Below are positions 11,533-43,125 of a stretch of 64,000 nucleotides of DNA, piece after piece. Origin of the DNA: an uncultured Methanosarcinales archaeon (GTDB lineage: Archaea; Nanobdellota; Nanobdellia; Woesearchaeales; ARS49); NCBI GenBank assembly GCA_964617195.1, contig CAZTVK010000019.1:144793-208792 (forward strand), given 5' to 3'. The notes under the pieces were generated by a model. That model had not been told where the DNA came from. It did no database searches and was given only the letters and a program-made list of their open reading frames with translations. A program made the position numbers and the translations under genes. The first letter of the stretch is position 1; each line of letters starts with the position of its first letter.

Positions 11533-12096
11533 ATGGCAAAAGCTGAAAAAAGTTCTAAACGAGAAATAAGAGTAGTAAACATCGTTGTATCAGCATCACT
11601 CGGACACGACATACCGCTCGAAAAAATGGCAGCAACCCTTTCAAACACCGAATACAACCCAGAACAATTCCCAGGACTGGTTATTCGCATCAAAGAGCCT
11701 AAAACTTCAGCACTTATTTTCAGCTCAGGCAAAATAGTCTGCACAGGAGCCCGCACAATGGCAAACGTGCACGAAAGCATCCGCAAAATAATCAAGTCCC
11801 TTGAAAAAATCAACGTCAAAATCAAGGAATTCCCAGAAGTCAAAATACAAAACATAGTAGCGTCAGGAAGCGTCGGAATGGACTTGAACCTGAACATCCT
11901 CGCGATGAAGCTGGAAAACACCGAGTACGAACCAGAACAATTCCCAGGACTCGTCTACAAACTACCAGAACAAAAAGCAACATTCTTGCTGTTCTCAAAC
12001 GGAAAAGTCGTGTGCACCGGAACAAAATCAGAAGAAGAAGTCAACAAAGCACTCGACAAGCTCATCGAGAACCTGAAGAAGATAAAGCAGAAATAA
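11533..12096 (+). CDS. tbp: TATA-box binding protein
   Basis: Two direct repeats 'NIVVSASLGHDIPLEKMA...NPEQFPGLVIRIKEPK' / 'NIVASGSVGMDLNLNILA...EPEQFPGLVYKLPEQK'. Confidence 0.95.
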   Translation: MAKAEKSSKREIRVVNIVVSASLGHDIPLEKMAATLSNTEYNPEQFPGLVIRIKEPKTSALIFSSGKIVCTGARTMANVHESIRKIIKSLEKINVKIKEFPEVKIQNIVASGSVGMDLNLNILAMKLENTEYEPEQFPGLVYKLPEQKATFLLFSNGKVVCTGTKSEEEVNKALDKLIENLKKIKQK

Positions 12097-12114: not shown

Positions 12115-12171
12115 AACTTCCTCGACGATAAACTCCATCGGAAACGGCAGGGTATATAACTCTACCACCAT

Positions 12172-12216: not shown

Positions 12217-14229
12217 ATGGACGCGGCAACACTTATTTCAAAAATGCAAGAATTTCTAGAGAAAAACTACTACGACCAACTACTAGAACGAATACGAAAA
12301 GGAGAAAAAAGCGCAACACTCGCATTCGCACACCTAGCCCTGTTTGACCCAGAACTAGCAGACATGCTGTTAGACCAGCCAGAAGAAGTCCTCAAAGCAG
12401 GAGAACTCGCAGTAGAACAACTAAACCTCGGCAAAGAAGTAAAAGGATTCATACTCAGATTCAAAACACTGCCCGCAAGCGCAATGGTTCTGATACGACA
12501 AGTCAGAAGCAAAAACCTCAACAAGCTCCTAACATTTGACGGCGTTGTAAGAAACAAAAGCGAAGTAAGACCGCAAGTAGCAAGCGCAAGATTCGAATGC
12601 CCAAGCTGCGGAAACGTCTTCAACATCTTACAATTGGATACGAAATTCCAAGAACCAACAAGATGCAGCTGCGGAAGAAAAGGCAAATTCAAAATGGTAA
12701 GCAAAGAATTGAACGACGCCCAAATGATGGTGCTGGAAGAAGTCCCAGAACAACTAGACGGCGGAGAACAACCAAAAAGAATGAACGTCCTGCTCACAAA
12801 CGACCTCGTCTCACCACTAACGGAAAAACGCACCAACCCAGGCGCGCGAGTCCAAGTGGTAGGACAAGTCAAAGAAGTACCGATATTCCTAAGAACAGGA
12901 GGACAAAGCACCAAGTTTGACCTCTTCATAGAAGCAAACCATCTCGAGCCAGTAGAAGAAGATTACAGCGAAATCAACATTTCACCAGAAGAACTCAAAC
13001 AAATCAAAGACCTCGCCAAAGACCCTGCCTTAATGAAAAAAATAGTAGGCTCAATGGCGCCAAGCATCTACGGCCATGAAAAAATCAAAGAAGCGCTCGC
13101 ACACCAACTAGCCGGCGGAGTCAGAAAAAAACGAGATGACGGAGTGATTACTAGAGGAGACATTCATATTCTGCTCGTCGGAGACCCAGGCGCGGCAAAA
13201 TCACAAATGCTCAAAAGAATGCAGTTCGTAGCCCCAAAAGCAAGATATGTAACAGGAAAAGGAGCAAGTGGCGCAGGACTCAGCGCGGCAGTAGTTAAAG
13301 ATGAATTCCTACAAGGCTGGAGCCTGGAAGCAGGAGCACTTGTACTTGCAAACAAAGGACTCTGCTGCATAGACGAACTTGACAAAATGACAAAAGAAGA
13401 CGGGTGGGCAATGCACGAAGCACTCGAACAACAAACCATTACTATCAGCAAAGCAAACATCCAAGCAACGCTCCGATGCGAAACCACAGTCCTTGCAGCA
13501 GCCAACCCAAAATTTGGAAGGTTCGACCCCTACGACACGGTTGCAAACCAAATAAACCTGGCGCCAACACTCATCAACAGATTTGACTTAATCTTCCCAA
13601 TCAAAGATGTGCCAGACCAAGTAAAAGACGAAAAAATGGCACAATTCATACTCCTACTCCACCAAAACAACGTAGAAAAACCAGAAATAGAAACAAAACT
13701 CCTCAGAAAATACCTCGCATTCTCAAGACAAAACATTTTCCCGAAACTGACTGACGCAGCCATAGAAGAACTCAGAGAATATTACCTCAAAATGCGCGCA
13801 TCAGTAACCGGAGAAGGAGTTAAATCAGTCCCAATCTCAGCCAGACAACTAGAAGGACTCGTAAGACTCTCAGAAGCAAGCGCAAGACTGCGCCTCAGCG
13901 ACAAAGTCACCAAAAAAGACGCAAGAAAAGCAATCGAACTCATGGATTACTGCCTAAGACTAGTTGCCTTTGACGAAAAAACAGGAACGTTTGACGTCGA
14001 CAGAATAGCAACCGACATGCCTGCAAGCAGCCGAAACAAAATAATCGTGATGAAAGAACTCATCGGCGAGTTAGAAGCCAAACTGGGCAAAGTCATCCCG
14101 GTAGAAGAAATCATCAGAGCATCATCAGAAAAAGACATGACGGAATCAGAAGTCGAAGAAATACTACAAAAATTAAAACGCGCAGGAGACATATTCGAGC
14201 CAAGAAGAGGCTTCATCAGCAAAATCTAA
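12217..14229 (+). CDS. mcm: MCM replicative helicase
   Basis: Zn finger 'CPSCGN...CSCGRKG', Walker A 'GDPGAAKSQ', Walker B 'CCIDELDKM', C-terminal wH; 670 aa, no intein. Confidence 0.95.
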   Translation: MDAATLISKMQEFLEKNYYDQLLERIRKGEKSATLAFAHLALFDPELADMLLDQPEEVLKAGELAVEQLNLGKEVKGFILRFKTLPASAMVLIRQVRSKNLNKLLTFDGVVRNKSEVRPQVASARFECPSCGNVFNILQLDTKFQEPTRCSCGRKGKFKMVSKELNDAQMMVLEEVPEQLDGGEQPKRMNVLLTNDLVSPLTEKRTNPGARVQVVGQVKEVPIFLRTGGQSTKFDLFIEANHLEPVEEDYSEINISPEELKQIKDLAKDPALMKKIVGSMAPSIYGHEKIKEALAHQLAGGVRKKRDDGVITRGDIHILLVGDPGAAKSQMLKRMQFVAPKARYVTGKGASGAGLSAAVVKDEFLQGWSLEAGALVLANKGLCCIDELDKMTKEDGWAMHEALEQQTITISKANIQATLRCETTVLAAANPKFGRFDPYDTVANQINLAPTLINRFDLIFPIKDVPDQVKDEKMAQFILLLHQNNVEKPEIETKLLRKYLAFSRQNIFPKLTDAAIEELREYYLKMRASVTGEGVKSVPISARQLEGLVRLSEASARLRLSDKVTKKDARKAIELMDYCLRLVAFDEKTGTFDVDRIATDMPASSRNKIIVMKELIGELEAKLGKVIPVEEIIRASSEKDMTESEVEEILQKLKRAGDIFEPRRGFISKI

Positions 14230-17596: not shown

Positions 17597-20500
17597 TCAC
17601 CCAAACCAAGCACCAAGACCAACCTGCTTATCAGGCTCCTTACCAAACACGCTCTCACAACGCACACGCAACAATTCAATAGTCTGCTGAAGATACGCAG
17701 AAACATTATATTTCTTAGCCAAAGAGATTGTCGGCTCCAAATATTTGTAAACGGAACCTTCACTGATCGTGAAAATAATCTTACCATTGCACTTAGTACA
17801 CTTGCCAACCAAAGGAGGACGACGGAACTTCTCATTGCAATGAACGCACCGGAACTCCTGCATTGAAAACTTCCTCAGATTACCCTTAGTATCCTTCAAG
17901 AAATGCTTTTCTATTACTAATCTGGCAACATCAGTAGTATCAACACTCCTCAACTTCTCAGCCAAATCCATCTGGCCCCTCAATTTCTCCTCCATCGAAG
18001 GCAGGGTCTTGTACGCACTGCACCTCACGGTAAGATTCAAATTTGTAATATCATGAGTGAATCCCATCTTCTCATACTGCTCAGGCTTGCCCAAACAACC
18101 CTTAATCTGAGGAATCTTAACCTCCCAAGGCATCTTATAATTAAGCGCGGCCTCATACAATTCCAAAGGATACTTCCACGCGATATCCACATCAAAAGCC
18201 ATATCATCAACCTCAGAAGGAGTCAAAACACTCGTAAGAACAAGAGGAGTATCCATAGTAGAACCACGACTACCAGGCAGGTACTTCTTGCTGAAATTCA
18301 AAAACGCGTCCATCAGCAAAATAACACAAGCCTCATCACCATCACAATCACGCCTAGTAGCAGCATGCAGCAAAGGATGCGCGAACAAGCCCTGAGTCTT
18401 GCTAAAACCAATAATCCTGCCAACCATGCCAGCACTAGTATGAGGCGCAAGAACAATTGTCAACTGGCCGACCAAATCCTGCGCGGAAGAAAGACAGTAT
18501 AAGGGAGGCAGACCATACATGTGCACCAAGACATCATCAATATAACGCGAAATATTAATCAAAACCTTATCAGCACCATCATCAGGACTCTCATCGCAAC
18601 TCGGCAAAACAATATCCTGAGGCTTCAACTCCAAAATCTGGTCAGCACTCATCAAAGCACCACCATTAATGTCCGTCACGTAACCGAGCTCCCTTAATTT
18701 CTCTATGCTAGTCCCAACCTCACACGGCTTGAAATGCGTCAAAGGCAACTGAGTCATATCATAACGAGTCGTGCCGTCCTTATACACGTGCACTCCATAC
18801 CTGGCACGCAACATGCCTTTACCAATATGTTCAGGAATATGTTCCTTGTTAGAAGTTCCGCGAACACCCTTGATAAGCTCAGGATACTCACGAATCCTCA
18901 TCTGTTTCAACACGCAATCAAAATAATGCTTAACAGGAATAGAACGCTGGCTGCTGCCCTGCGCATCACCATGCAACTGGCATTTCGGAGAATCAATCAA
19001 ACCACACCTTGCACATTTCCACTTTCTCGCAGCCTGCTTGCCGCAAACTTCGCACACGCTCAAAACAGTTTCAACATTGCACGAAGAACAGAAAAAGAAA
19101 GCAAACTCGGAAATCACCTTGCCGGCATCAAGCGCGCTCTTAAAACTACGAAGCCTGCCACCCTCATCGCCAATCGGGAAAAGAACATGAGGACTGCCAG
19201 AAAGCTCCCGCTGCTTAGCCTTCTCAGGACGACCCATCCTAGCACCGATAAAAGTGCCGGCCTTATCACGAAGCACAACAGGAGAAAACTGGTTTATGGC
19301 ATCAATCACTGACTTGTCAGCGATAATGTGCTTTTTCAACTCACTAGGCTTTTCATCAGTCAAACGGAAAATAACGGTAAGCATTGTGGCATACTCACGG
19401 TCAATCACGACAAACTCGTTATTCACGAAAGAATGAGGCAAACCAACAAGCTCAAGACAACGCTTGGCATCATGTTTCGGAAGAACAATCTTCTGAACGC
19501 CAGACTCGCCAGTATGCACTTTAGCACTATCAAACCAGTCCAACAAAGAACGGAACTCATCAAGCGACAAAACATTCCAAAAAACCGTGTAAAACGGATG
19601 CAACGGAGTATTTGTAACACGCGCAATCTTGATGGCCTCTTGAGAAGTAGGAACTACGCGCAACGGATCAGAAAGTAACTGCTCAACGCGCTCCTTTGAA
19701 ACACCTGAAGAGACAATTCCGTCAAACACTCCATTAACAGACTTTACGAGCTCCTGTGCCCACCATTCCTGACAATATCCGGCAGGAACCAACAAGTGAG
19801 CACGATTCAAAAAATCACCATACGCGATTAGTATATCACCCAAAAACAAAATCTCCTTAATCAAAGGCTGAACGCGCTTAGCCTCTTCCAAAGAAGAAAT
19901 ATACAAAACAGAACCATCCTGCAACCTGACAACAGGCCCATCAATCAAATCACAAGAAGTCATGCTAGCAGCCTTACCAGGACGCTCAGTCTTCAACTGA
20001 GTCCCTGTAGCAATATACTGATTAAGAATATACATAGTGGCAGGATGCATGCTCTGCGCGCTGAAACCGCTAGTACGAGAACGACCATACCTCAACCTGA
20101 AACCACCAGGACGCAAAGGATACCCCAGAACAGGCCTGCCCGCGACCAAATCAGAAATGTACGTATAATCAGGAGAAACCTTCTGCTGCGAAGAAGAAGT
20201 CGACTTACCAGCCTTTGCCTTCTTCTGAATATGCAAAAACTCCTCCAAAAAATTCCAAGAATCCAACCCAAAATCCTTACCCCAAATGCTAAGCTGCTTC
20301 CACAACTTAGGAGCTTTCAAAGGAATACAAGAAGACAAAACAAGACAATAACCACTGCGAATAAAATTCGTCGGAATACGCGGCAAGTCCTTGTAATTAC
20401 TGACCTCAATCTTCTCACTCGGATCACCGCTAACCTCAACAGGCAAATTTTTCATCAAAAACACAGTCTCAGACTCACTGGGAACATACTGCAAATTCGT

Positions 20501-21112
20501 TATACGCTCATGATAATCCTGCAATTCCGTCACTGCGCGCTTAATCTCATACGGCTGCGCATCATAAACATCATAACCAAGACACTTACGCACATAATCA
20601 GTAATGATAACGCTAACAGCAGCAGCAGTTCCACCAGCATTACGAACAGGACCAGCAAAATTCAAACAAATATACTCACCGCGATTGTCAACACGCCTCT
20701 TAACCTCAATATTAACAATGCCGTCCAAAGGAGAGCTCACAACACCAACTGTAACGTACGCAAAACCAGTACGGATGCCAACCTCCATCGCCTCCTTCCT
20801 GTCAGCAAACTTGCAAAACTTTTCCAAAGCGACTTCCTCAGAAATTTTTAGTGCAACCCTCCAATCCAGAGAGCCATACTGCTTCTCCAACTCAATAATA
20901 CGCTCCACAACACCAGAATTCACGATCTGAGGAGCAATAACTGAAATCAAACCAACAACACGCTGAGCCATGTTCTCAGCCAGCGAAACCTCAACAGTCT
21001 TCTCAGGATCAAAACCCTTCGCCCTTGCCTGCGAAGCAACAGAGTGCAACCTAGAAACCTCCTCCTTCAAACGATCAAAATAACCCTGCATTTCAACAGA
21101 TGCGCTAACCAT
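17597..21112 (-). CDS. polC: DNA polymerase II (PolD) large subunit DP2
   Basis: 1171 aa; conserved DP2 N-terminus and Cys clusters; no intein. Confidence 0.95.
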   Translation of the reverse strand: MVSASVEMQGYFDRLKEEVSRLHSVASQARAKGFDPEKTVEVSLAENMAQRVVGLISVIAPQIVNSGVVERIIELEKQYGSLDWRVALKISEEVALEKFCKFADRKEAMEVGIRTGFAYVTVGVVSSPLDGIVNIEVKRRVDNRGEYICLNFAGPVRNAGGTAAAVSVIITDYVRKCLGYDVYDAQPYEIKRAVTELQDYHERITNLQYVPSESETVFLMKNLPVEVSGDPSEKIEVSNYKDLPRIPTNFIRSGYCLVLSSCIPLKAPKLWKQLSIWGKDFGLDSWNFLEEFLHIQKKAKAGKSTSSSQQKVSPDYTYISDLVAGRPVLGYPLRPGGFRLRYGRSRTSGFSAQSMHPATMYILNQYIATGTQLKTERPGKAASMTSCDLIDGPVVRLQDGSVLYISSLEEAKRVQPLIKEILFLGDILIAYGDFLNRAHLLVPAGYCQEWWAQELVKSVNGVFDGIVSSGVSKERVEQLLSDPLRVVPTSQEAIKIARVTNTPLHPFYTVFWNVLSLDEFRSLLDWFDSAKVHTGESGVQKIVLPKHDAKRCLELVGLPHSFVNNEFVVIDREYATMLTVIFRLTDEKPSELKKHIIADKSVIDAINQFSPVVLRDKAGTFIGARMGRPEKAKQRELSGSPHVLFPIGDEGGRLRSFKSALDAGKVISEFAFFFCSSCNVETVLSVCEVCGKQAARKWKCARCGLIDSPKCQLHGDAQGSSQRSIPVKHYFDCVLKQMRIREYPELIKGVRGTSNKEHIPEHIGKGMLRARYGVHVYKDGTTRYDMTQLPLTHFKPCEVGTSIEKLRELGYVTDINGGALMSADQILELKPQDIVLPSCDESPDDGADKVLINISRYIDDVLVHMYGLPPLYCLSSAQDLVGQLTIVLAPHTSAGMVGRIIGFSKTQGLFAHPLLHAATRRDCDGDEACVILLMDAFLNFSKKYLPGSRGSTMDTPLVLTSVLTPSEVDDMAFDVDIAWKYPLELYEAALNYKMPWEVKIPQIKGCLGKPEQYEKMGFTHDITNLNLTVRCSAYKTLPSMEEKLRGQMDLAEKLRSVDTTDVARLVIEKHFLKDTKGNLRKFSMQEFRCVHCNEKFRRPPLVGKCTKCNGKIIFTISEGSVYKYLEPTISLAKKYNVSAYLQQTIELLRVRCESVFGKEPDKQVGLGAWFG

Positions 21113-22543
21113 TCAAAACCTCATAAAAGACACATTACGCGAGTTCAAATCAACAATGGGCACGACACCCGGCTCAGGATCATGACCGACCTTTTCCTGA
21201 AAGTCAGTCTTTGCCTGAAAACAACTTGCCGACACCAAAGTAACACCACGATAATTCAAAGTCCCTGCCTTGTGAATATGCCCTGCAAAAAACAAATCAG
21301 GAACTTTCTCAATCACCAAAGGATCCATCCTCGGATCAGGAATATACATGGTAGTAGTATGCTGAGGAGCAAGATGACGCCTCTGCAACAAAAACCTCAT
21401 AATGAGAGGAGCACGGTCAGAAATATGAGTTCCGCTATTCTTGATGCTCGGCACTATCTCACCATAATCATCAAAACTATAACCATGATACATCAAAACA
21501 TCAAGGCCGGAAAAATCTGAAGAATTATGAATGTTCACCATGCAAGGATTGCACGTCATGGTCACGTTTGAAAGCTCCCACAAAGGCTTCGCATAATCCT
21601 TAGACAATTTAGGCTGCGGCTCACTAATCCTGCCAACATCATGATTGCCAGGACCGATAATGATATTCACGTCCTTGCGAACACGGCTCAAAAGCCGAGC
21701 ACATTCACGATACTGCTCACGAATATCAGTAATCGACAACTCCTTCTCCTGCTGAGGATAAATACCGACACCATCAACAAGATCCCCGCAAATAAACAAA
21801 TACTTCAATTTCTGCGCGACCTCACGCTCCTCAGGAGAACCATAATTTCCATTAACCCACTCCAAGAAACGCTCGAACTTCTCACGCTCAAAACGCGCAG
21901 AACCAACATGAATGCACGACAAAACAGCAGCATACACAACATCAGGAGACTTTTTCACACTAGAAATAGGAATATCCGGCACTACAATCGCATCAGCGAA
22001 AATAATTCCCTCACCCAACATGCCATGAACGCCAATAACCTCATCGAAAACAATATCCTTCCCAAAAGAGTACAAGTCCTGCTTTGATTTTGAGATTAAC
22101 ACCTGAATAGTTCCAGTAGTATCCTCCAATGTAAGAATAATGTGCTCATTCTTCGACAATCTCTTATCAGCAACAATACCTATAATTGACACGGCTTCCC
22201 GATCACGCTTGCCACGCAACCTCCCAATAGACGTTAGGTTCTGCAGTTCATTACGGGAATGCAGCAAACGCTCAAGAGCACGATACCTCGCGTTGAAATA
22301 ATCAATAAAATCCTGCACTGAACGCTTCTTAGGCCTATCATCATACTCCCACACGATACGAATAGAAGAAACAGGCTCCTTGGAAACCAACAATTCCTGA
22401 GGCGTCACACCATTAGACAATGCAGCATGCCACTGCTCAACAACACTCGGCACGTTGAGCTTATCAAGAACAGCACGACTAACCAAAACACGATGTTTCA
22501 AAAACGCGCTTACGATCTCCCTCTTCTTTACAAGTTGTTCCAT
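21113..22543 (-). CDS. polB: DNA polymerase II (PolD) small subunit DP1 (calcineurin-like phosphoesterase)
   Basis: 'GDLVDGVGIYP...IIGPGNHD...GHIHKAG' MPE motifs plus OB N-domain. Confidence 0.93.
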   Translation of the reverse strand: MEQLVKKREIVSAFLKHRVLVSRAVLDKLNVPSVVEQWHAALSNGVTPQELLVSKEPVSSIRIVWEYDDRPKKRSVQDFIDYFNARYRALERLLHSRNELQNLTSIGRLRGKRDREAVSIIGIVADKRLSKNEHIILTLEDTTGTIQVLISKSKQDLYSFGKDIVFDEVIGVHGMLGEGIIFADAIVVPDIPISSVKKSPDVVYAAVLSCIHVGSARFEREKFERFLEWVNGNYGSPEEREVAQKLKYLFICGDLVDGVGIYPQQEKELSITDIREQYRECARLLSRVRKDVNIIIGPGNHDVGRISEPQPKLSKDYAKPLWELSNVTMTCNPCMVNIHNSSDFSGLDVLMYHGYSFDDYGEIVPSIKNSGTHISDRAPLIMRFLLQRRHLAPQHTTTMYIPDPRMDPLVIEKVPDLFFAGHIHKAGTLNYRGVTLVSASCFQAKTDFQEKVGHDPEPGVVPIVDLNSRNVSFMRF

Positions 22544-23763
22544 GACAAGCCAAGCTCCTCGTTCAAAATGCCCTTCATTTTCTCAAGAATGCTATCATTC
22601 ACGCCCATGCTAATCTCGCGAGTGCGACCATAACGACCCTTACTAATGACCTTAGCATTAATGATACCCAACATATCAAGCTCGGCAATAATATCGCTAA
22701 CCCTCCTCTGCGTAAGAGGCCTAAGCCCTGTCTGAGAACAACATTTCTCATACAAAGAATAAATCTCCCCAGTAAAAACTCCCTGCTTGCGAGAACAAGC
22801 ACCCAGAATAGAGAATAGAGTAACTTGGAACTGCTTAGGCTGCGTGGCAATGATATCAAGAACGCGATCACGCTCAATCTTATCCTCTGCCTGGTCAAGA
22901 TGAGAAATTGACACCTTAGGATCATTCTGACGCTCGGCCAACTCTCCAGAAACACGCAACAATTCCAAAGCACGCCGCGCGTCACCATGCTCCCTTGCAG
23001 CAAAAGCAGCACACTTCTCAATAACACCATCCTCAACTACACCAGGATTGAAAGCCAACTGGGCGCGCTGCTTCAAAATCTGCTGAATCTGCTCAGCATT
23101 ATACGGAGGAAAAATCAGCTCCTCCTCGCTCAAAGAACTCTTAACCCTCGGATCAAGCGTGTCAGTAAAAATCAAATCATTAGAAATTCCGATAAGAGTA
23201 ATCTGCGTGTTCTTCAACTCAGAATTAATCCTAGTAAGATTATACAACAAATCATTGCCCGCCTTGCCCATAAGCTGGTCAATCTCGTCCAGAATCAAGA
23301 TCAAAGTGTGCTTTTCCTTATCGATTGTGTTGAAAAAAATATGATAAACCTCATCAGTCGGCAAACCAGTAGGCGGAATATTCTTCCCATAATCACGCAA
23401 CAATTGAGCAACAATCCTGTACTCGGTATCAGCGAGTTTTTTCAGCTTACAATTCAAATAGATAACCTTAATCGGAATATTCTTCTGCTTAGCAATACTC
23501 AACATTTGACTCGTGGTAAACTTCACTGTGAGCGTCTTACCGCTTCCGGTTTTCCCATAAATAAACACGTTTGAAGGCTTCTCACAACGCAAAGCAGGAG
23601 CCATAATATTCGCCAACTGGTGCACCTGTTCATCACGATGAAGAATCTGCACAGGAGTATAATTAGATTGCAAAACCACCTTACTCTTAAAAATCGGCTT
23701 TTTATCCAAGTACTTCTCAAAAAAGTCAACCAGCCCCTTTTCCTTCATGTCAAAAATCACCAA
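22528..23763 (-). CDS. cdc6: Orc1/Cdc6 replication initiator
   Basis: Walker A 'GKTGSGKT', Walker B 'LILDEID', C-terminal wH; 16-nt overlap with polB. Confidence 0.95.
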   Translation of the reverse strand: MVIFDMKEKGLVDFFEKYLDKKPIFKSKVVLQSNYTPVQILHRDEQVHQLANIMAPALRCEKPSNVFIYGKTGSGKTLTVKFTTSQMLSIAKQKNIPIKVIYLNCKLKKLADTEYRIVAQLLRDYGKNIPPTGLPTDEVYHIFFNTIDKEKHTLILILDEIDQLMGKAGNDLLYNLTRINSELKNTQITLIGISNDLIFTDTLDPRVKSSLSEEELIFPPYNAEQIQQILKQRAQLAFNPGVVEDGVIEKCAAFAAREHGDARRALELLRVSGELAERQNDPKVSISHLDQAEDKIERDRVLDIIATQPKQFQVTLFSILGACSRKQGVFTGEIYSLYEKCCSQTGLRPLTQRRVSDIIAELDMLGIINAKVISKGRYGRTREISMGVNDSILEKMKGILNEELGLSWNNL

Positions 23764-24205
23764 GTTCGCTTTTTACATGCCCAAAACATATGTGCTTTTT
23801 GAGCACGCCAAGAAAGCCCTCATACACCCCTTAAATAGGGGCTTTCTTTCATGTGGAAATGGAACTGAATCTTAGTATATAAAGGTTTGCGGAGGCCAGA
23901 CCCCATGATTTCTTATGGAAAAAAATGGAATTGTTGTTTGTTGTTGTTTTGATTTTTGATTTTAATATATATAATAGAAAGTCAGGTTTAATTATCTAAT
24001 TACTTTCTATATAGATAATAAATAAATAAGAGAAAACTACAAACAAAAAACAAAAACACTCTTGCATGAGAAATGAAGGGGTGTCACCTTATAAATGGGT
24101 TTTTGTTATTCCACAGTAGCAACAAAAGAGAAACATTTATATATGGGTTATCCCTACATATGAGTAACAACAAGATAGCTACGGATATTAACGGAGACCA
24201 AAACA
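23764..24205. promoter_or_regulatory. candidate replication origin (oriC): inverted ORB-like G-string elements flanking AT-rich DUE
   Basis: 'ACACCCCTT' (23826-23834) vs 'AAGGGGTGT' (24077-24085) inverted; 'GTGGAAATGGAA' mini-ORB-like half sites; ~130-nt >75% AT stretch 23930-24060; adjacent to orc1. Confidence 0.55.
24181..24196 (+). promoter_or_regulatory. ACGGA-N5-ACGGAG direct repeat 10 nt upstream of TrmB-like gene 1 (related element upstream of paralog at 45444-45458)
   Basis: read directly; compare 'ACGGAaaaaACCGGAG' at 45444. Confidence 0.35.
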
Positions 24206-24985
24206 ATGATTGTCCAAAAGGATTTTTTAAACAAACTTAAAGATTTCGGATTGAACAGTTACGAAGCAAAGTTATGGACAGCACTTTTGTCGCGTGGCGT
24301 CGCAACAGCAGGCGAGCTTTCTGACATCGCAAACGTGCCAAGAAGCAGAAGTTATGACGTTCTCGAATCACTAGAAAGAAAGGGTTTTGTCATAATGAAA
24401 CTAGGCAAACCTATCAAATACATTGCAGTACCTCCAGCAGAAGTACTTGAACGCGTCAAAAAATCAGTAAAAGACGACGCTGACAAGCAAGTTGAGCTCA
24501 TCGACGGCCTAAGAAAAAGCGAAGTTCTCGGCGAGTTAAACACACTTCACAAACAAGGCATAGAACTTGTCGAGCCAGCCGATCTTACAGGAGCGGTCAG
24601 AGGACGAGGAAACCTTTACAATCACCTTATATCAGGAATCAAGAACGCTGAAAAAACAGTCAGCATAATGACGACCGAGCTAGGCCTCATACGAAAAACA
24701 GAAGCATTGAAAGGAGCCCTTCAAAAAGCAAAAGAAAAAGGCATCCGCATCAGAATCCTCGCACCAACAAAAAATCACGGAAAAGCACTTTCTTCAATAG
24801 CACAAATGAAGCACATTGACGTACCACCAGCAAGATTCTGCGTTGTAGACGGCAAACAGGTAACCTTCATGGTGCTAGACGACGTCGACATCCACCCGAA
24901 CTACGACTTCGGAGTCTGGGTAAGCGCAGCCAACTTCGCCAAATCATTTGACAACATATTCAACATGATCTGGGACAAGCAATAA
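24206..24985 (+). CDS. TrmB-family transcriptional regulator (paralog 1)
   Basis: N-terminal HTH 'YEAKLWTALLSRGVATAGELSDIANVPRSRSYDVLESLERKGFV'. Confidence 0.8.
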   Translation: MIVQKDFLNKLKDFGLNSYEAKLWTALLSRGVATAGELSDIANVPRSRSYDVLESLERKGFVIMKLGKPIKYIAVPPAEVLERVKKSVKDDADKQVELIDGLRKSEVLGELNTLHKQGIELVEPADLTGAVRGRGNLYNHLISGIKNAEKTVSIMTTELGLIRKTEALKGALQKAKEKGIRIRILAPTKNHGKALSSIAQMKHIDVPPARFCVVDGKQVTFMVLDDVDIHPNYDFGVWVSAANFAKSFDNIFNMIWDKQ

Positions 24986-25698: not shown

Positions 25699-26159
25699 TG
25701 CCCACTATTTTTTCTTCTCCATTTCTAACAGAAACGCATAAACAACCAGAAAAAGCAGAATACGCAATATCATACCATCTAGAAAGAGCGATACCACGCG
25801 GAAGCGTTATCTATGCACTCTTCCCTAAAAAAATACTTTCAAAACTCCTCCCGCCAATCGCCAAAGCAAAAAACTGCACGATCATAACACACCTAACAGG
25901 AAAAACCAGCAAAATCGATGAACCAGACATCATTCTAGCAGAACCAGACGGGTTCTCAGCAGGGGGAGCGCTCTTCACACCAGAAGAAACAAAATTAGTC
26001 AGTGGACTACCAGTCATCTGCGTCGGCAGCACCAAACAATGGACTCACATCCTCCCGGCAACACACGATTTAGTGCCCGTCTATAGAATAATAAGCGAAC
26101 GCGGAATCCACACGCCAGAACAAATAGAAGAACTTATTTCTTTTTCATTAAAACCTTAA
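25698..26159 (+). CDS. hypothetical protein (alpha/beta fold?)
   Basis: ORF with good coding composition; no recognisable motif. Confidence 0.4.
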   Translation: MPTIFSSPFLTETHKQPEKAEYAISYHLERAIPRGSVIYALFPKKILSKLLPPIAKAKNCTIITHLTGKTSKIDEPDIILAEPDGFSAGGALFTPEETKLVSGLPVICVGSTKQWTHILPATHDLVPVYRIISERGIHTPEQIEELISFSLKP

Positions 26160-26652
26160 ATTCCTTCTCCAACCTTTCAAACTCAGCCTTAAGATCCTTG
26201 ACAAGCTTAGAGTTGTCCTCCAAATCAAGCAAACTGCCGCACTCAGGACATTTAAAGCTGAAATCATGACTCTGCTCAAAATCCAAACGCATACACTTAT
26301 TCGAGCAAATGTAAAATTGAGTGTTGTTCTCACGATTCAAACGCTCGTGAAGCCTATCAAGCTTCCTCTTCTTGATATCCTTAACCAAATCCTTAACACG
26401 CTTCTGATTAAAAGTCCAATAGTAAATATACCACCCTTTTTTCTTATCCTTCTTCCTGATGAAACTCACCAAGTTGTTGTCATACAACCTGTAAAGCATA
26501 TTCCTCGTCAAATTAATCTCCTTTTTAATGTTATCAGCAAGCTTAAACTCAGAAACATTACTCTTATTCCTTAACGCCTTAACCAGCGGAAGAACATCCT
26601 CACCAGCTACCTCAGAAACAATCTCCTCAACTAACTTACTTGAAGCCTTCAT
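26134..26652 (-). CDS. tfe: transcription factor E alpha (TFE / TFIIE-alpha homolog)
   Basis: N-terminal wH plus zinc ribbon 'FYICSNKC...FKCPECGSLL'. Confidence 0.8.
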   Translation of the reverse strand: MKASSKLVEEIVSEVAGEDVLPLVKALRNKSNVSEFKLADNIKKEINLTRNMLYRLYDNNLVSFIRKKDKKKGWYIYYWTFNQKRVKDLVKDIKKRKLDRLHERLNRENNTQFYICSNKCMRLDFEQSHDFSFKCPECGSLLDLEDNSKLVKDLKAEFERLEKEFKVLMKKK

Positions 26653-26680: not shown

Positions 26681-27076
26681 TTATAAATGTTTTGTCAGCT
26701 GTTCGAAAGTAATTCCTCTAAGCTCAGCCAACTCAGGAGTAACCGCCAAATTCTGCCCGGAATCCCTCAAATCTCTCGGATCCAAAAACAACCAAGGCAT
26801 CCTATTGAAACGAACAGCAATCAAAGGCCTTGCGCCAGCTTTTTTCGCATACTCAACCAACTCAGCAACTTCCCTCTTCTCCAAATACTGATTATGATTA
26901 CTCGTAGACTTGCACTCAATCGCCAAATTAATTCCTTCTTTATTCGCAATAACATCAGGAGCAGGATACTTCATACTCCCACTGCCCGCAACCCTGCAAG
27001 CAGTCCACTCCTTAGTAGCCCAGAATAAATGAATCAGCTCCCTTTCAGCATTCGACCCCTTTTGCTTTGAACTCAT
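26681..27076 (-). CDS. hjc: Holliday junction resolvase Hjc
   Basis: 'KGSNAERELIHLF...RVAGSGS...PDVIANKEGINLAIECKSTS' Hjc catalytic motifs; ORF extends to 27130 via GTG but M19 ATG matches Hjc N-terminus. Confidence 0.8.
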   Translation of the reverse strand: MSSKQKGSNAERELIHLFWATKEWTACRVAGSGSMKYPAPDVIANKEGINLAIECKSTSNHNQYLEKREVAELVEYAKKAGARPLIAVRFNRMPWLFLDPRDLRDSGQNLAVTPELAELRGITFEQLTKHL

Positions 27077-27139
27077 AATATTGAATTTTGAATTTTGCAG
27101 CATAAAAACCTTCGCTTCGCTCAAAGACACTCCTCATGT

Positions 27140-35012: not shown

Positions 35013-35054
35013 TCTTTAATCTTATAAATCTTTGCCAAAACAACACAGAAACCT

Positions 35055-35100
35055 ATCGACGAACGAAGTTCGTCGGAGGTCTCGAACAGCTACGCTGTTC
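35055..35100. promoter_or_regulatory. two tandem palindromes CGACGAAC-gaa-GTTCGTCG and TCGAACAGC-tac-GCTGTTCGA just upstream of TATA 'cctttaaatac' of PRC-barrel gene
   Basis: perfect 8- and 9-bp arms, 3-nt centres, read directly. Confidence 0.6.
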
Positions 35101-35160
35101 GAAACCTTTAAATACAATCTCACTCTCAGAAGTGTTATCATTGAAGAAAGGTGATAAGCA

Positions 35161-35421
35161 ATGGACGATCAAAAAAAGTTCTCAAAACAAATAATCGGAA
35201 AGACAGTAGTCAGCAAGAGCGGAAAACGCTTCGGAGAAGTAGGAGACGTAGTCTTTGAAGTCAAAACAGGAGAACTAATCCACGTTGTTCTGAAGAACCC
35301 AACCCAGTACACAGAAAAACTGGAGCTTGAGAAAGGCAAATCAGGAGAATTACTAATACCATACAGCGCAGTCATAGCAACAGGAGACTTCCTAGTTGTA
35401 TCTGAAGAAGATATAGTATAA
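35161..35421 (+). CDS. PRC-barrel domain protein
   Basis: 'IIGKTVVSKSGKRFGEVGDVVFEVKTGELIHVVL' PRC barrel. Confidence 0.6.
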   Translation: MDDQKKFSKQIIGKTVVSKSGKRFGEVGDVVFEVKTGELIHVVLKNPTQYTEKLELEKGKSGELLIPYSAVIATGDFLVVSEEDIV

Positions 35422-35469
35422 TTCTTTGCCACAACAATCTTTTTATAGCTATATACTAGCCAAAACGCT

Positions 35470-36432
35470 ATGGGGGATCAATCATCAGTTATCTGGACAG
35501 AGAAATACCGCCCTAAAACATTCGATGACCTGAAAGGACAGGAAGAAATCATCAGCAAACTACGGGCGTTCGTCAAACAGAAAAACTTGCCACACCTGAT
35601 GTTCACAGGACCAGCAGGAGTAGGCAAAAGCACCCTTGCTTTAGTCATAGCACGCACATTCTTTGGAGAGAATTACAGAGAAAACTTCCTCGAAATGAAC
35701 GCATCAGACGAAAGAGGAATAGACGTCGTACGAGTAAAAGTCAAAGACTTCGCAAGAACAAAAGCAATAGGCGACGTGCCATTCAAAATAATATTTCTGG
35801 ATGAATGCGACGCGCTCACAAAAGAAGCACAACAAGCACTACGCCGAACAATGGAAAACCACACCAGCACATGCCGTTTTATTTTAGCAGCGAATTATAG
35901 CAGCAAAATCATAGACCCAATACAAAGCAGGTGCGCAGTCTTCAGATTCAAACAACTAGCAAAAGAACACGCCATAGCACACATCAACCACATAATAAAA
36001 TCAGAAAACCTCACAATGACAGACACAGCAAAAGACGCACTAGTAAAAGTAGCAGAAGGAGACCTGAGACGAGTAACAAACATACTACAAAGCTGCGCAG
36101 CAGTAGCGAAAGACATCACACCAGAAACAGTCTACTCACTAGCATCATTTGCAGAACCAACAGAAGTCAAAGAAGTCCTTATCGCAGCACTCAAAGGAGA
36201 ATTCATCAAAGCCAGAGAAAAACTACTCGACATAATGCTAAAGTACGGCCTATCAGGACTAGACACCATCAAGCAAATACAAAGCGAAATCTGGAACCTG
36301 GAAATCGACGGAAGAAAAAAAGTTGCGCTGATAGACAAATGCGGAGAAATCGAATTCAGACTAGTAGAAGGCTCAGATGAATTTGTTCAACTAGAAGCAT
36401 TACTCGCCCAGTTTGTTCTCGCGGGCGCGTAA
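35470..36432 (+). CDS. rfcS: replication factor C small subunit
   Basis: 'WTEKYRPKTFDDLKGQ', Walker A 'GPAGVGKST', 'FKIIFLDECDALT', SRC motif 'QSRCAVF'; no intein. Confidence 0.93.
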   Translation: MGDQSSVIWTEKYRPKTFDDLKGQEEIISKLRAFVKQKNLPHLMFTGPAGVGKSTLALVIARTFFGENYRENFLEMNASDERGIDVVRVKVKDFARTKAIGDVPFKIIFLDECDALTKEAQQALRRTMENHTSTCRFILAANYSSKIIDPIQSRCAVFRFKQLAKEHAIAHINHIIKSENLTMTDTAKDALVKVAEGDLRRVTNILQSCAAVAKDITPETVYSLASFAEPTEVKEVLIAALKGEFIKAREKLLDIMLKYGLSGLDTIKQIQSEIWNLEIDGRKKVALIDKCGEIEFRLVEGSDEFVQLEALLAQFVLAGA

Positions 36433-41828: not shown

Positions 41829-42989
41829 CTACTCCGCTCGAATTTCAAGCCTGACAACATCAAGCTCGGCCAGCGGCTGAATCTCAATATAGTTATTGCC
41901 CTCGCGAATAATAGAACTAATATCACGAGCAAATTTCGGTTCACGCTGGTCAATCACGTCAAGCTTACCATTAATGTTAGTCTTAGCACGCTTCACCCTA
42001 CCATCATCAACAAACTCAATATCAAGAATGATGCGCGCTTTCTTATCAAGCACAGAATTGTACAAGCTCGGCTTCACATCAAAAAAGTCAACCCACGCGC
42101 GCACAGGCTTGATAACAGTCCTCGTGCGCACCTGCTCAATACGATAACTACCCTTAACAATCCTGAAAATCAAAGTGTTCTTGCCATCACGCAAGTCCTC
42201 AAGATACAACTCTTGCCTGTTCAAACTCTCACAAGCAGGAACAGAACTCGAAATAAGCTTTCCATTAAGCTCGATAACCATAGTACCAACACTCTTCTGC
42301 TCGCAAATTGGGTAAAAGTCAAGATAACCAGACTCAAAATTACTCATCTCAACAGAAGAAATACTGAACGTGTTAGTTGATTTTTGTTTTTCAAGATCAG
42401 TAATGTCGCCAATAACCTTGATATCAGCAAAAGAATATTTCCTTTTAGACAAAAATCCGCCCTTCACTGAAAATTCCAAAGTATTAGATTCACGCAACAA
42501 ACTCTTGGACAAAGCAACAGGAGGAGGATTCTGCAACGGCACAGGAGATTCAAAAATCAACGCGCCATTCAACATAATAACCAAAGTGCCCCTGCGCTCA
42601 GGCGCCTGAAAGCTCAACACAACATTCTCAGTGTTCTCCAAATCGGGAATGCTGAAAGAGAAAATTCTTTTCGCCTCACTGAACCAGCCCTTCTTAATCA
42701 TGAAAGGATTTTCCTTGGCCAAAATCTGAGCGTTCCTGGTTTCGACCAAATAAATATTCGGCAAAGGATGGTCAAACTGGTTGCGAGAAACAAACTGAAG
42801 CCTGCCAACAGGCGATTGCAACAAAACTTCCTCAGGCCCGCCATCCCCAGTAACGTTTCCATCACCAAGCAAAGCCTCACGCTCACTAGGAGGCAAGAAT
42901 AGAATATAAAAAATGAATATGAGAGTCATGATGCCAATCAAAGCAGCAGCTGGGCTTCCACTCTGAAGTTTTTGACCACGCCTATTCAT
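41829..42989 (-). CDS. N-terminally membrane-anchored extracytoplasmic protein
   Basis: start at M26 of longer ORF (SD 'aaaggtgat' 6 nt upstream); N-term 'MNRRGQ...AAALIGIMTLIFIFYILFL'. Confidence 0.5.
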   Translation of the reverse strand: MNRRGQKLQSGSPAAALIGIMTLIFIFYILFLPPSEREALLGDGNVTGDGGPEEVLLQSPVGRLQFVSRNQFDHPLPNIYLVETRNAQILAKENPFMIKKGWFSEAKRIFSFSIPDLENTENVVLSFQAPERRGTLVIMLNGALIFESPVPLQNPPPVALSKSLLRESNTLEFSVKGGFLSKRKYSFADIKVIGDITDLEKQKSTNTFSISSVEMSNFESGYLDFYPICEQKSVGTMVIELNGKLISSSVPACESLNRQELYLEDLRDGKNTLIFRIVKGSYRIEQVRTRTVIKPVRAWVDFFDVKPSLYNSVLDKKARIILDIEFVDDGRVKRAKTNINGKLDVIDQREPKFARDISSIIREGNNYIEIQPLAELDVVRLEIRAE

Positions 42990-43125
42990 GAAATCACCTT
43001 TTTTTCCTGAACGATAAACCATCCTGGAGACTATATAAACATTTCTACAATCAAAGCAGCACAATTTAGCGCAACATTTATATACTATTTACTATTGAAA
43101 AGGAGTAAATTATGGGGGAGTTCAT

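Follow-up and report, generated by a model that had tools for sequence, protein, structure and literature searches.

The window, the 64-kb stretch of DNA analysed here, belongs to an uncultured, Woesearchaeota-like DPANN archaeon whose Orc1 is 60–89% identical to MAG proteins labelled Woesearchaeota or Nanoarchaeia; some of the MAGs that carry close relatives of this protein are mislabelled Methanosarcinales. An orc1/cdc6 gene heads an operon that continues into the genes for both subunits of DNA polymerase D, and between it and a divergent gene for a TrmB-family regulator lies an intergenic region that holds two inverted origin recognition boxes (ORBs), an AT-rich spacer, and a short motif within the spacer (Table 1). 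A first, sequence-only reading of this DNA had placed a replication origin upstream of an orc1–polymerase operon, and Pfam confirms the gene order as orc1-DP1-DP2: Orc1 contains the Cdc6_lid, Cdc6_C and AAA domains, and the domains of PolD DP1 and DP2 are matched as well. The closest solved structures to the window Orc1 are those of Sulfolobus solfataricus Orc1-1 (2qby_A, 1.9e-109) and then Aeropyrum pernix ORC1 (2v1u_A, 4.3e-99), the two initiators for which complexes with ORB DNA have been solved. By sequence, the window protein is of the Orc1-1 class.

Table 1. Coordinates of the features at the orc1 locus and of an ORB-like site elsewhere in the window
Feature	Position	Strand	Sequence or remarks
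DP2, PolD large subunit	17597-21112	-	Pfam
DP1, PolD small subunit	21113-22543	-	Pfam
orc1/cdc6	22528-23748	-	406 aa from ATG 23748; heads the orc1-DP1-DP2 operon
orc1 5′ leader	23749-23845	-	Arose by an insertion or duplication of ~104 nt; hairpins 23810-23848 and 23792-23806
Mini-ORB	23846-23858	-	TTCCACATGAAAG; downstream of the orc1 TATA box; pattern match 23847-23858
orc1 TATA box (inferred promoter)	23876-23883	-	TTTATATA, preceded by CAAA(N)n; block CAAAnnTTTATATA conserved in alignment A1
orc1-proximal ORB	23900-23920	-	TTCCATAAGAAATCATGGGGT; 32.0 bits, best match in the 128 kb scanned
Inter-ORB spacer, putative unwinding element	23921-24061	.	141 bp, AT-rich
Core motif	24004-24013	-	TATATAGAAA; palindrome TCTATATAGA at 24006-24015; ucm-like
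Candidate probe sequence for the core motif			TCTATATAGAAA
orc1-distal ORB	24062-24082	+	TTGCATGAGAAATGAAGGGGT, contains AGAAATGAAGGGGTGT; 28.8 bits, second-best match in the window
Putative promoter of the TrmB-family gene	24099-24143	+	Inverted repeat TTTTGTT..AACAAAA 24099-24128, then GAAACA-TTTATATA 24130-24143
TrmB-family regulator, divergent	24206-24985	+	259 aa; Pfam TrmB HTH 4.7e-21
ORB-like site upstream of mcm (12217-14229)	12133-12153	+	CTCCATCGGAAACGGCAGGGT; 15.3 bits

The start codon of orc1 is most likely the ATG at 23748 rather than the TTG at 23763, because the N-terminus MKEKGL that it gives matches those of relatives, and the intergenic gap therefore runs from 23749 to 24205. 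The sequence-only reading had described a gap of 442 nt, the largest in the window; measured from this ATG it is 457 nt long and, among gaps between open reading frames of at least 90 aa, it shares the first rank with 35013-35469. A scan of the whole window against Rfam at gathering thresholds returned zero RNA families, so that the gap contains no known noncoding RNA, and ARAGORN predicted zero tRNAs in the whole window. A 411-aa open reading frame (41829-43064) was considered as a second orc1 and rejected, being without a Pfam match. The first part of the window (1-36500) is an island of information-processing genes that includes a ribosomal-protein operon and the genes for TBP (11533-12096), MCM, PolD DP2 and DP1, Orc1, a tRNA-splicing endonuclease, TFE-alpha (26134-26652), Hjc (26681-27103) and the RFC small subunit (35470-36432); TBP also adjoins MCM in one of the related loci discussed below (L028).

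Both ORBs were found with a position weight matrix derived from 14 sites of relatives and none of the window, which was run over both strands (128 kb) and set against 300 windows simulated with a first-order Markov model. The orc1-proximal and orc1-distal sites are its two best matches by a wide interval, as the third match reaches 15.3 bits and the fourth 7.8, and the best score in a simulated window averages 10.0 and never exceeds 21.7, so that 0 of 300 simulations reach even the 28.8 bits of the weaker site. Such a scan had been proposed as a check on the initial reading, and its outcome favours that reading. Both ORBs are 21 bp long and have the form TTCCA-N3-GAAAT-N3-GGGGT, and they are inverted relative to each other, with the TTCCA ends pointing inward to the spacer and the G-strings pointing outward. 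Including the ORBs, the module spans 183 bp and lies 152–334 nt upstream of the orc1 start codon.

The DNA between the ORBs is unusual in its own right. The segment 23921-24050 has a G+C content of 17.7%, and no other 130-nt segment of the window falls below 28.5%. This bears out the earlier description of an AT-rich stretch at this place. On the + strand the left half of the spacer is T-rich and its right half A-rich. Within it lies the core motif. Its pattern, TATATAG[AT]AA, is found in the inter-ORB spacer of 18 of 24 related loci, always in the orientation of orc1, with 0 matches on either strand elsewhere in 459 kb of related loci. When the motif is compared with the duplex ATTATACAAAAG, which was used in crystallography of the Sulfolobus origin element ucm, only 8 of 10 AT-rich positions match; the two share TATA-(G/C)-AAAA.

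The sequence-only reading had arrived at an inverted pair of elements by a different route, and its details fare unevenly. All of the strings that it quoted are present, and GTGGAAATGGAA (23853-23864) and ATGGAAAAAAATGGAA (23915-23930) lie exactly where it had put them; the two copies of its 9-mer inverted repeat are real but lie at 23824-23832 and 24076-24084, that is, 2 nt and 1 nt away from the positions given. As evidence for a pair of ORBs this exact repeat has to be abandoned, since about 50% of simulated 442-nt sequences of the same composition hold at least one such pair. Its left element, ACACCCCTT, is not a conserved ORB; it falls within the loop of the longer leader hairpin, in the lineage-specific insertion of ~104 nt. 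The right element, AGAAATGAAGGGGTGT, is part of the true distal ORB. As for the true left ORB, the first six bases of ATGGAAAAAAATGGAA fall in it, and its G-string, which reads ACCCC on the + strand (the whole site being accccatgatttcttatggaa on that strand), was missed.

It is instructive to place the module in the context of its relatives. Related loci were collected from genomes (13) and metagenomes (17), with Orc1 proteins 60–89% identical to that of the window, and 28 of them have usable upstream sequence. In nearly all of these 28 loci we find the same layout, namely an ORB(-), the locus-wide G+C minimum, an ORB(+), a TATA box and orc1, and the remaining intergenic sequence cannot be aligned among them. 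An orthologous proximal ORB is present in essentially all 28, and most relatives have the inverted distal ORB. The inter-ORB spacer, measured in 24 loci, ranges from 92 to 411 bp with 8–31% G+C, and in 16 of the 24 its halves have A/T skews of opposite sign, the distal half being T-rich and the proximal half A-rich in the orientation of orc1. In alignment A1, which sets the window beside four relatives (L001, L002, L003 and L006), there is no variation in the ORBs, in the TATA block or in the spacer motif, and the rest of the spacer diverges. The ORB-spacer-ORB unit stays beside orc1 whether the gene on the far side encodes a TrmB-like protein, a PRC-barrel protein or a large surface protein; the TrmB-like neighbour is kept in many lineages, among them L001, L007, L009, L011 and L027, and other genes take its place in L008, L018, L024 and L028. 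Judged by this pattern, strong purifying selection acts on both ORBs, on the spacer and on the core motif.

These comparisons also dispose of the idea that the resemblance to ORBs is a chance product of AT-rich intergenic DNA, to which we assign a negligible probability. The 9-mer inverted repeat does occur at the level expected by chance, and the half-site pattern TYCCANNNGAAA, taken alone, is not enriched in the window (2 found, 1.57 expected). Against this, the scores of the full-length ORBs exceed those of all simulations and their position and orientation are conserved in 28 loci, which already refutes the idea.

On the far side of the distal ORB lies another conserved block, the putative promoter of the TrmB-family gene, whose conservation is evident in alignment A1 and by eye and which includes the inverted repeats labelled I3 and I9. 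This block is probably outside the origin proper. A conserved inverted repeat, TTTTTGYTA..TARCAAAAA, stands directly upstream of the BRE/TATA of the TrmB gene, and it may be that gene's own operator.

The orc1 side of the module is more intricate. The orc1 TATA box lies 16 nt downstream of the end of the proximal ORB, and it is followed by a mini-ORB, which scores 13.5 with a half-site matrix at -110 in the window. Most relatives likewise have a mini-ORB between the TATA box and the ATG, and in those without the leader insertion the positions are -68 to -92 for the proximal ORB, about -30 for the TATA box (-135 in the window) and -6 to -20 for the mini-ORB, which in some cases overlaps the ATG. 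The insertion is common to the window, L001, L002 and L014; it lies between the mini-ORB and the start codon, and the whole module has therefore been displaced upstream. Its traces include a direct repeat with a spacing of 104 (D1; flanking TTTC(C/T)TTCATGT) and the inverted repeats I12 and I13. In L003 and L006, alignment A1 shows the ATG of the mini-ORB running straight into orc1, with the insertion absent; in the window this ancestral start sits in the mini-ORB and now opens a 10-codon upstream reading frame, MKESPYLRGV*. The predicted fold of the leader RNA is unremarkable (z = -2.06). With an ORB 16 nt from the TATA box on one side and a mini-ORB close by on the other, Orc1 probably also autoregulates the orc1-polD operon when it binds, either repressing or tuning its transcription.

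It is therefore worth considering whether the ORBs could be transcriptional operators only, through which Orc1 autoregulates the divergent orc1 and trmB-like promoters, the AT-rich stretch being promoter-rich intergenic DNA. The closeness of the proximal ORB and the mini-ORB to the orc1 promoter fits this proposal, as does the existence of Orc1 paralogues that act as transcription regulators, for example Orc1-2 of Sulfolobus (PMC9738581). So does the ORB-like site upstream of mcm, which lies 23 nt upstream of the mcm TATA box and is oriented like the ORB upstream of orc1; this site is marginal, however, its score being reached in 12 of 300 simulated windows, and it is missing upstream of mcm in L028. 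Three further observations make an operator-only role very improbable in our view. The distal ORB and the AT trough are kept where the far-side gene differs; the trough of 8–31% G+C, the opposed skews of its halves and the positioned core motif are not promoter features; and the layout as a whole copies that of the genetically dissected oriC1 of Sulfolobus.

The likeness to oriC1 of Sulfolobus (Saccharolobus) deserves closer examination. There, a 130-bp unit, ORB3-DUE-ORB2, lies beside orc1-1, and firing requires each ORB and a central 11-bp ucm, to which the nucleoid protein UBP binds. The locus described here likewise has inverted ORBs that flank an AT-rich element directly upstream of the gene for an Orc1-1-class initiator, with a short conserved motif in the middle of the AT-rich part. 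The two also differ: the unit spans 183 bp here with its ORBs, the central motif is TATATAGAAA instead of TTATACAAAAG (8 of 10 positions match), and in place of three ORBs there are two full ORBs and one mini-ORB. The activity of the Sulfolobus origin has been proven by marker frequency and mutagenesis, whereas that of the present locus is predicted from sequence.

Comparison with other archaeal origins is also informative. The 22-bp ORB probe TCTCCACAGGAAACGGAGGGGT, which we take to be ORB4 of A. pernix from the ORC1–DNA structure, has identical spacing of half-site and G-string, TCCA-N3-GAAA(Y)-N3-GGGGT, and by eye 15 of its 22 positions match the proximal ORB; the A. pernix origin itself has four ORBs, unlike the locus here. 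With the oriC of Pyrococcus and other Thermococcales the locus shares the gene order cdc6-dp1-dp2 and an inverted ORB pair with an AT-rich region upstream of cdc6. However, in the Pyrococcus ORB TTCCAGTGGAAATGAAACTCTGGGGGG the G-run comes 8 nt after GAAAT (in ORB1 and ORB2) and not 3 nt as here, and the Thermococcales have a long ORB (23–34 bp) and many 13-bp mini-ORBs where we find one extra mini-ORB. Pyrococcus also has a second ORB cluster inside dp1; in the dp1 of the window, zero matches to the ORB matrix reach at least 1.1 bits.

Taken together, each element of sequence anatomy that characterizes an oriC1-type origin is present, as far as sequence can reveal it: adjacency to orc1, at least two ORBs, opposed polarity, and conservation. 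We thus think it likely that the locus is an archaeal replication origin module of the Orc1-1/oriC1 type, and we hold with much the same confidence that it is a functional, Orc1-dependent one. The opposed polarity of ORBs around an unwinding element is a documented arrangement that is thought to permit symmetric loading of MCM. By analogy, one Orc1 monomer would bind each ORB with a fixed polarity, and because the ORBs are inverted, the two winged-helix/lid surfaces would face each other across the spacer. Such a facing pair could bring two MCM hexamers to the AT-rich DNA, and this DNA would then melt. The central motif is probably bound by an accessory protein, as ucm is in Sulfolobus, and Orc1 on the proximal ORB and mini-ORB would probably control transcription of orc1-polD at the same time.

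Whether this module is also the place from which the chromosome is mainly copied is a separate question, and here strand composition must be taken into account. Over the window as a whole, the + strand contains 37.2% A, 19.2% T, 25.3% C and 18.3% G, and at four-fold sites, in + strand coordinates, A rises to 54–62% with T at 6.5–12%, C at 20–25% and G at 10–13%, giving a silent-site A:T ratio of about 9:1. The four-fold composition is alike for genes on either strand and to the left and right of the candidate origin, and the skew of intergenic DNA is much weaker (+0.17 to +0.27). The asymmetry is therefore very strong and independent of gene orientation, and since the four-fold bias is fixed by strand, the Pfam-verified genes for MCM and RFC use third-position preferences opposite to those of the equally verified genes for PolD, Orc1, TFE and Hjc on the other strand. 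A bidirectional origin is expected to reverse strand asymmetry, and the origin of Pyrococcus coincides with a switch in skew. The skew at the candidate origin, unlike that in Pyrococcus, does not switch: no reversal is found anywhere in the window, which extends 24 kb to the left and 40 kb to the right of the site, nor at orc1 in six related loci (L001, L002, L007, L024, L027 and L028) with flanks of 4–10 kb. A local dip just right of the site, at 24.2–28.4 kb, might have been taken for weak firing; this was rejected, because similar dips occur at 43–44 kb and 49–51 kb. The computation of skew had also been proposed as a check on the sequence-only reading, and within the window and in relatives this one goes against it, the sign being the same on both sides. 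Its core inference of an origin is strongly favoured by comparison, through the inverted ORBs, the AT-rich element and an architecture conserved across 28 loci; its left flanking element and the skew check find no such support.

Strand composition, then, argues against most of the chromosome being copied bidirectionally from the module, and the role of the orc1-adjacent module as the main start site is unproven. One reading of this is that the locus binds Orc1 and resembles an origin but is not the main start, the strand polarity being set by another start site or by another mode of replication, for example recombination-dependent initiation; the module would then lie dormant, act as a backup, or serve mainly to control the expression of orc1-polD. 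In favour of this are the one sign of the asymmetry, which persists across the site both in the window and in the six related loci, and the varying orientation of orc1 relative to the asymmetry: some lineages have orc1 on their G/T-rich strand and others on their A/C-rich strand. There is also a precedent in Thermococcus kodakarensis, in which, according to PMC5663688, a conserved oriC and Cdc6 are retained and yet are dispensable in growing cells. On the other hand, ORC1/Cdc6 is reported to be single-copy across the phylum Nanobdellota, and neither the 64-kb window nor 459 kb of related loci shows a second cluster of ORBs, so that there is no sign of another origin dependent on Orc1. The strong purifying selection on ORBs, spacer and motif is, moreover, hard to square with a silent site. 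We regard a subsidiary role of this kind as possible but unlikely.

Two further matches to the ORB matrix among the relatives can be mentioned here. Sites of the form TTCCATCGGAAAT(C/G)ATAGGGT, scoring 21–22 bits, occur in L018 (5743-5763) and L030 (5860-5880, - strand), ~4.2 kb upstream of orc1, where they precede a repeat of the CAACAATCAT type at the 5′ end of a small open reading frame without known function. Lying in or beside an unrelated small open reading frame, they were set aside.

A more speculative way to reconcile the module with the skew is that it is the sole origin in this clade of Woesearchaeota and that the chromosome is copied almost entirely one way. An origin and a terminus in adjacent positions, unidirectional theta replication, or strand displacement that leaves one strand single-stranded for long could each lead to copying of this kind. 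If this were so, one strand would be A/C-rich around the whole circle, and both the extreme skew and the missing reversal at the origin would be explained. A simple unidirectional model meets the difficulty that the orientation of the core motif is fixed relative to orc1 whereas the polarity of the skew relative to orc1 varies, and we consider the proposal doubtful.

In the literature searched, the only precedent for skew of one sign is the CPR order UBA1400 (Ch65, Collierbacteria, Beckwithbacteria), whose closed genomes have a one-sign strand disparity in G/C only; the explanations put forward for it there are an origin next to the terminus or replication that runs in one direction. Like UBA1400, the organism studied here belongs to an ultra-small uncultured lineage with a strong strand disparity that does not reverse; it differs in that it is an archaeon, in that A/T and G/C are both skewed, and in that our view covers 64 kb together with windows of at most 21 kb in relatives. 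Were the chromosome copied one way, the one-sign skew of UBA1400 would have its counterpart among the archaea. Within the DPANN archaea, the predicted origin of ‘Candidatus Forterrea’ (Diapherotrites) lies next to cdc6 at an extremum of cumulative GC skew. The present locus is likewise a cdc6-adjacent origin call in a DPANN genome, but it is based on elements recognized by their sequence, and the skew shows no turn there.

The kind of origin described here is already known; what is added is the ucm-like core motif and the mismatch between origin and strand bias. The literature that we searched contains nothing specific on skew or origins in Woesearchaeota, and no definition of a Woesearchaeota or Nanobdellota origin by its sequence elements was found in it. 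The layout known from Sulfolobus, including a ucm-like core, would extend to DPANN archaea, and the coordinates and consensus of the ORBs, spacer and core motif offer a basis for annotating origins throughout the clade. The 208 closed genomes of Nanobdellota recently published have been rotated to ORC1. The coexistence of a conserved origin module and an extreme, non-reversing strand bias is a mismatch that bears on how ultra-small archaea replicate. Finally, the contigs of six related loci (L004, L005, L010, L014, L015 and L020) terminate in or beside the AT-rich spacer, which suggests that assemblies tend to break there, through low coverage or local variation.
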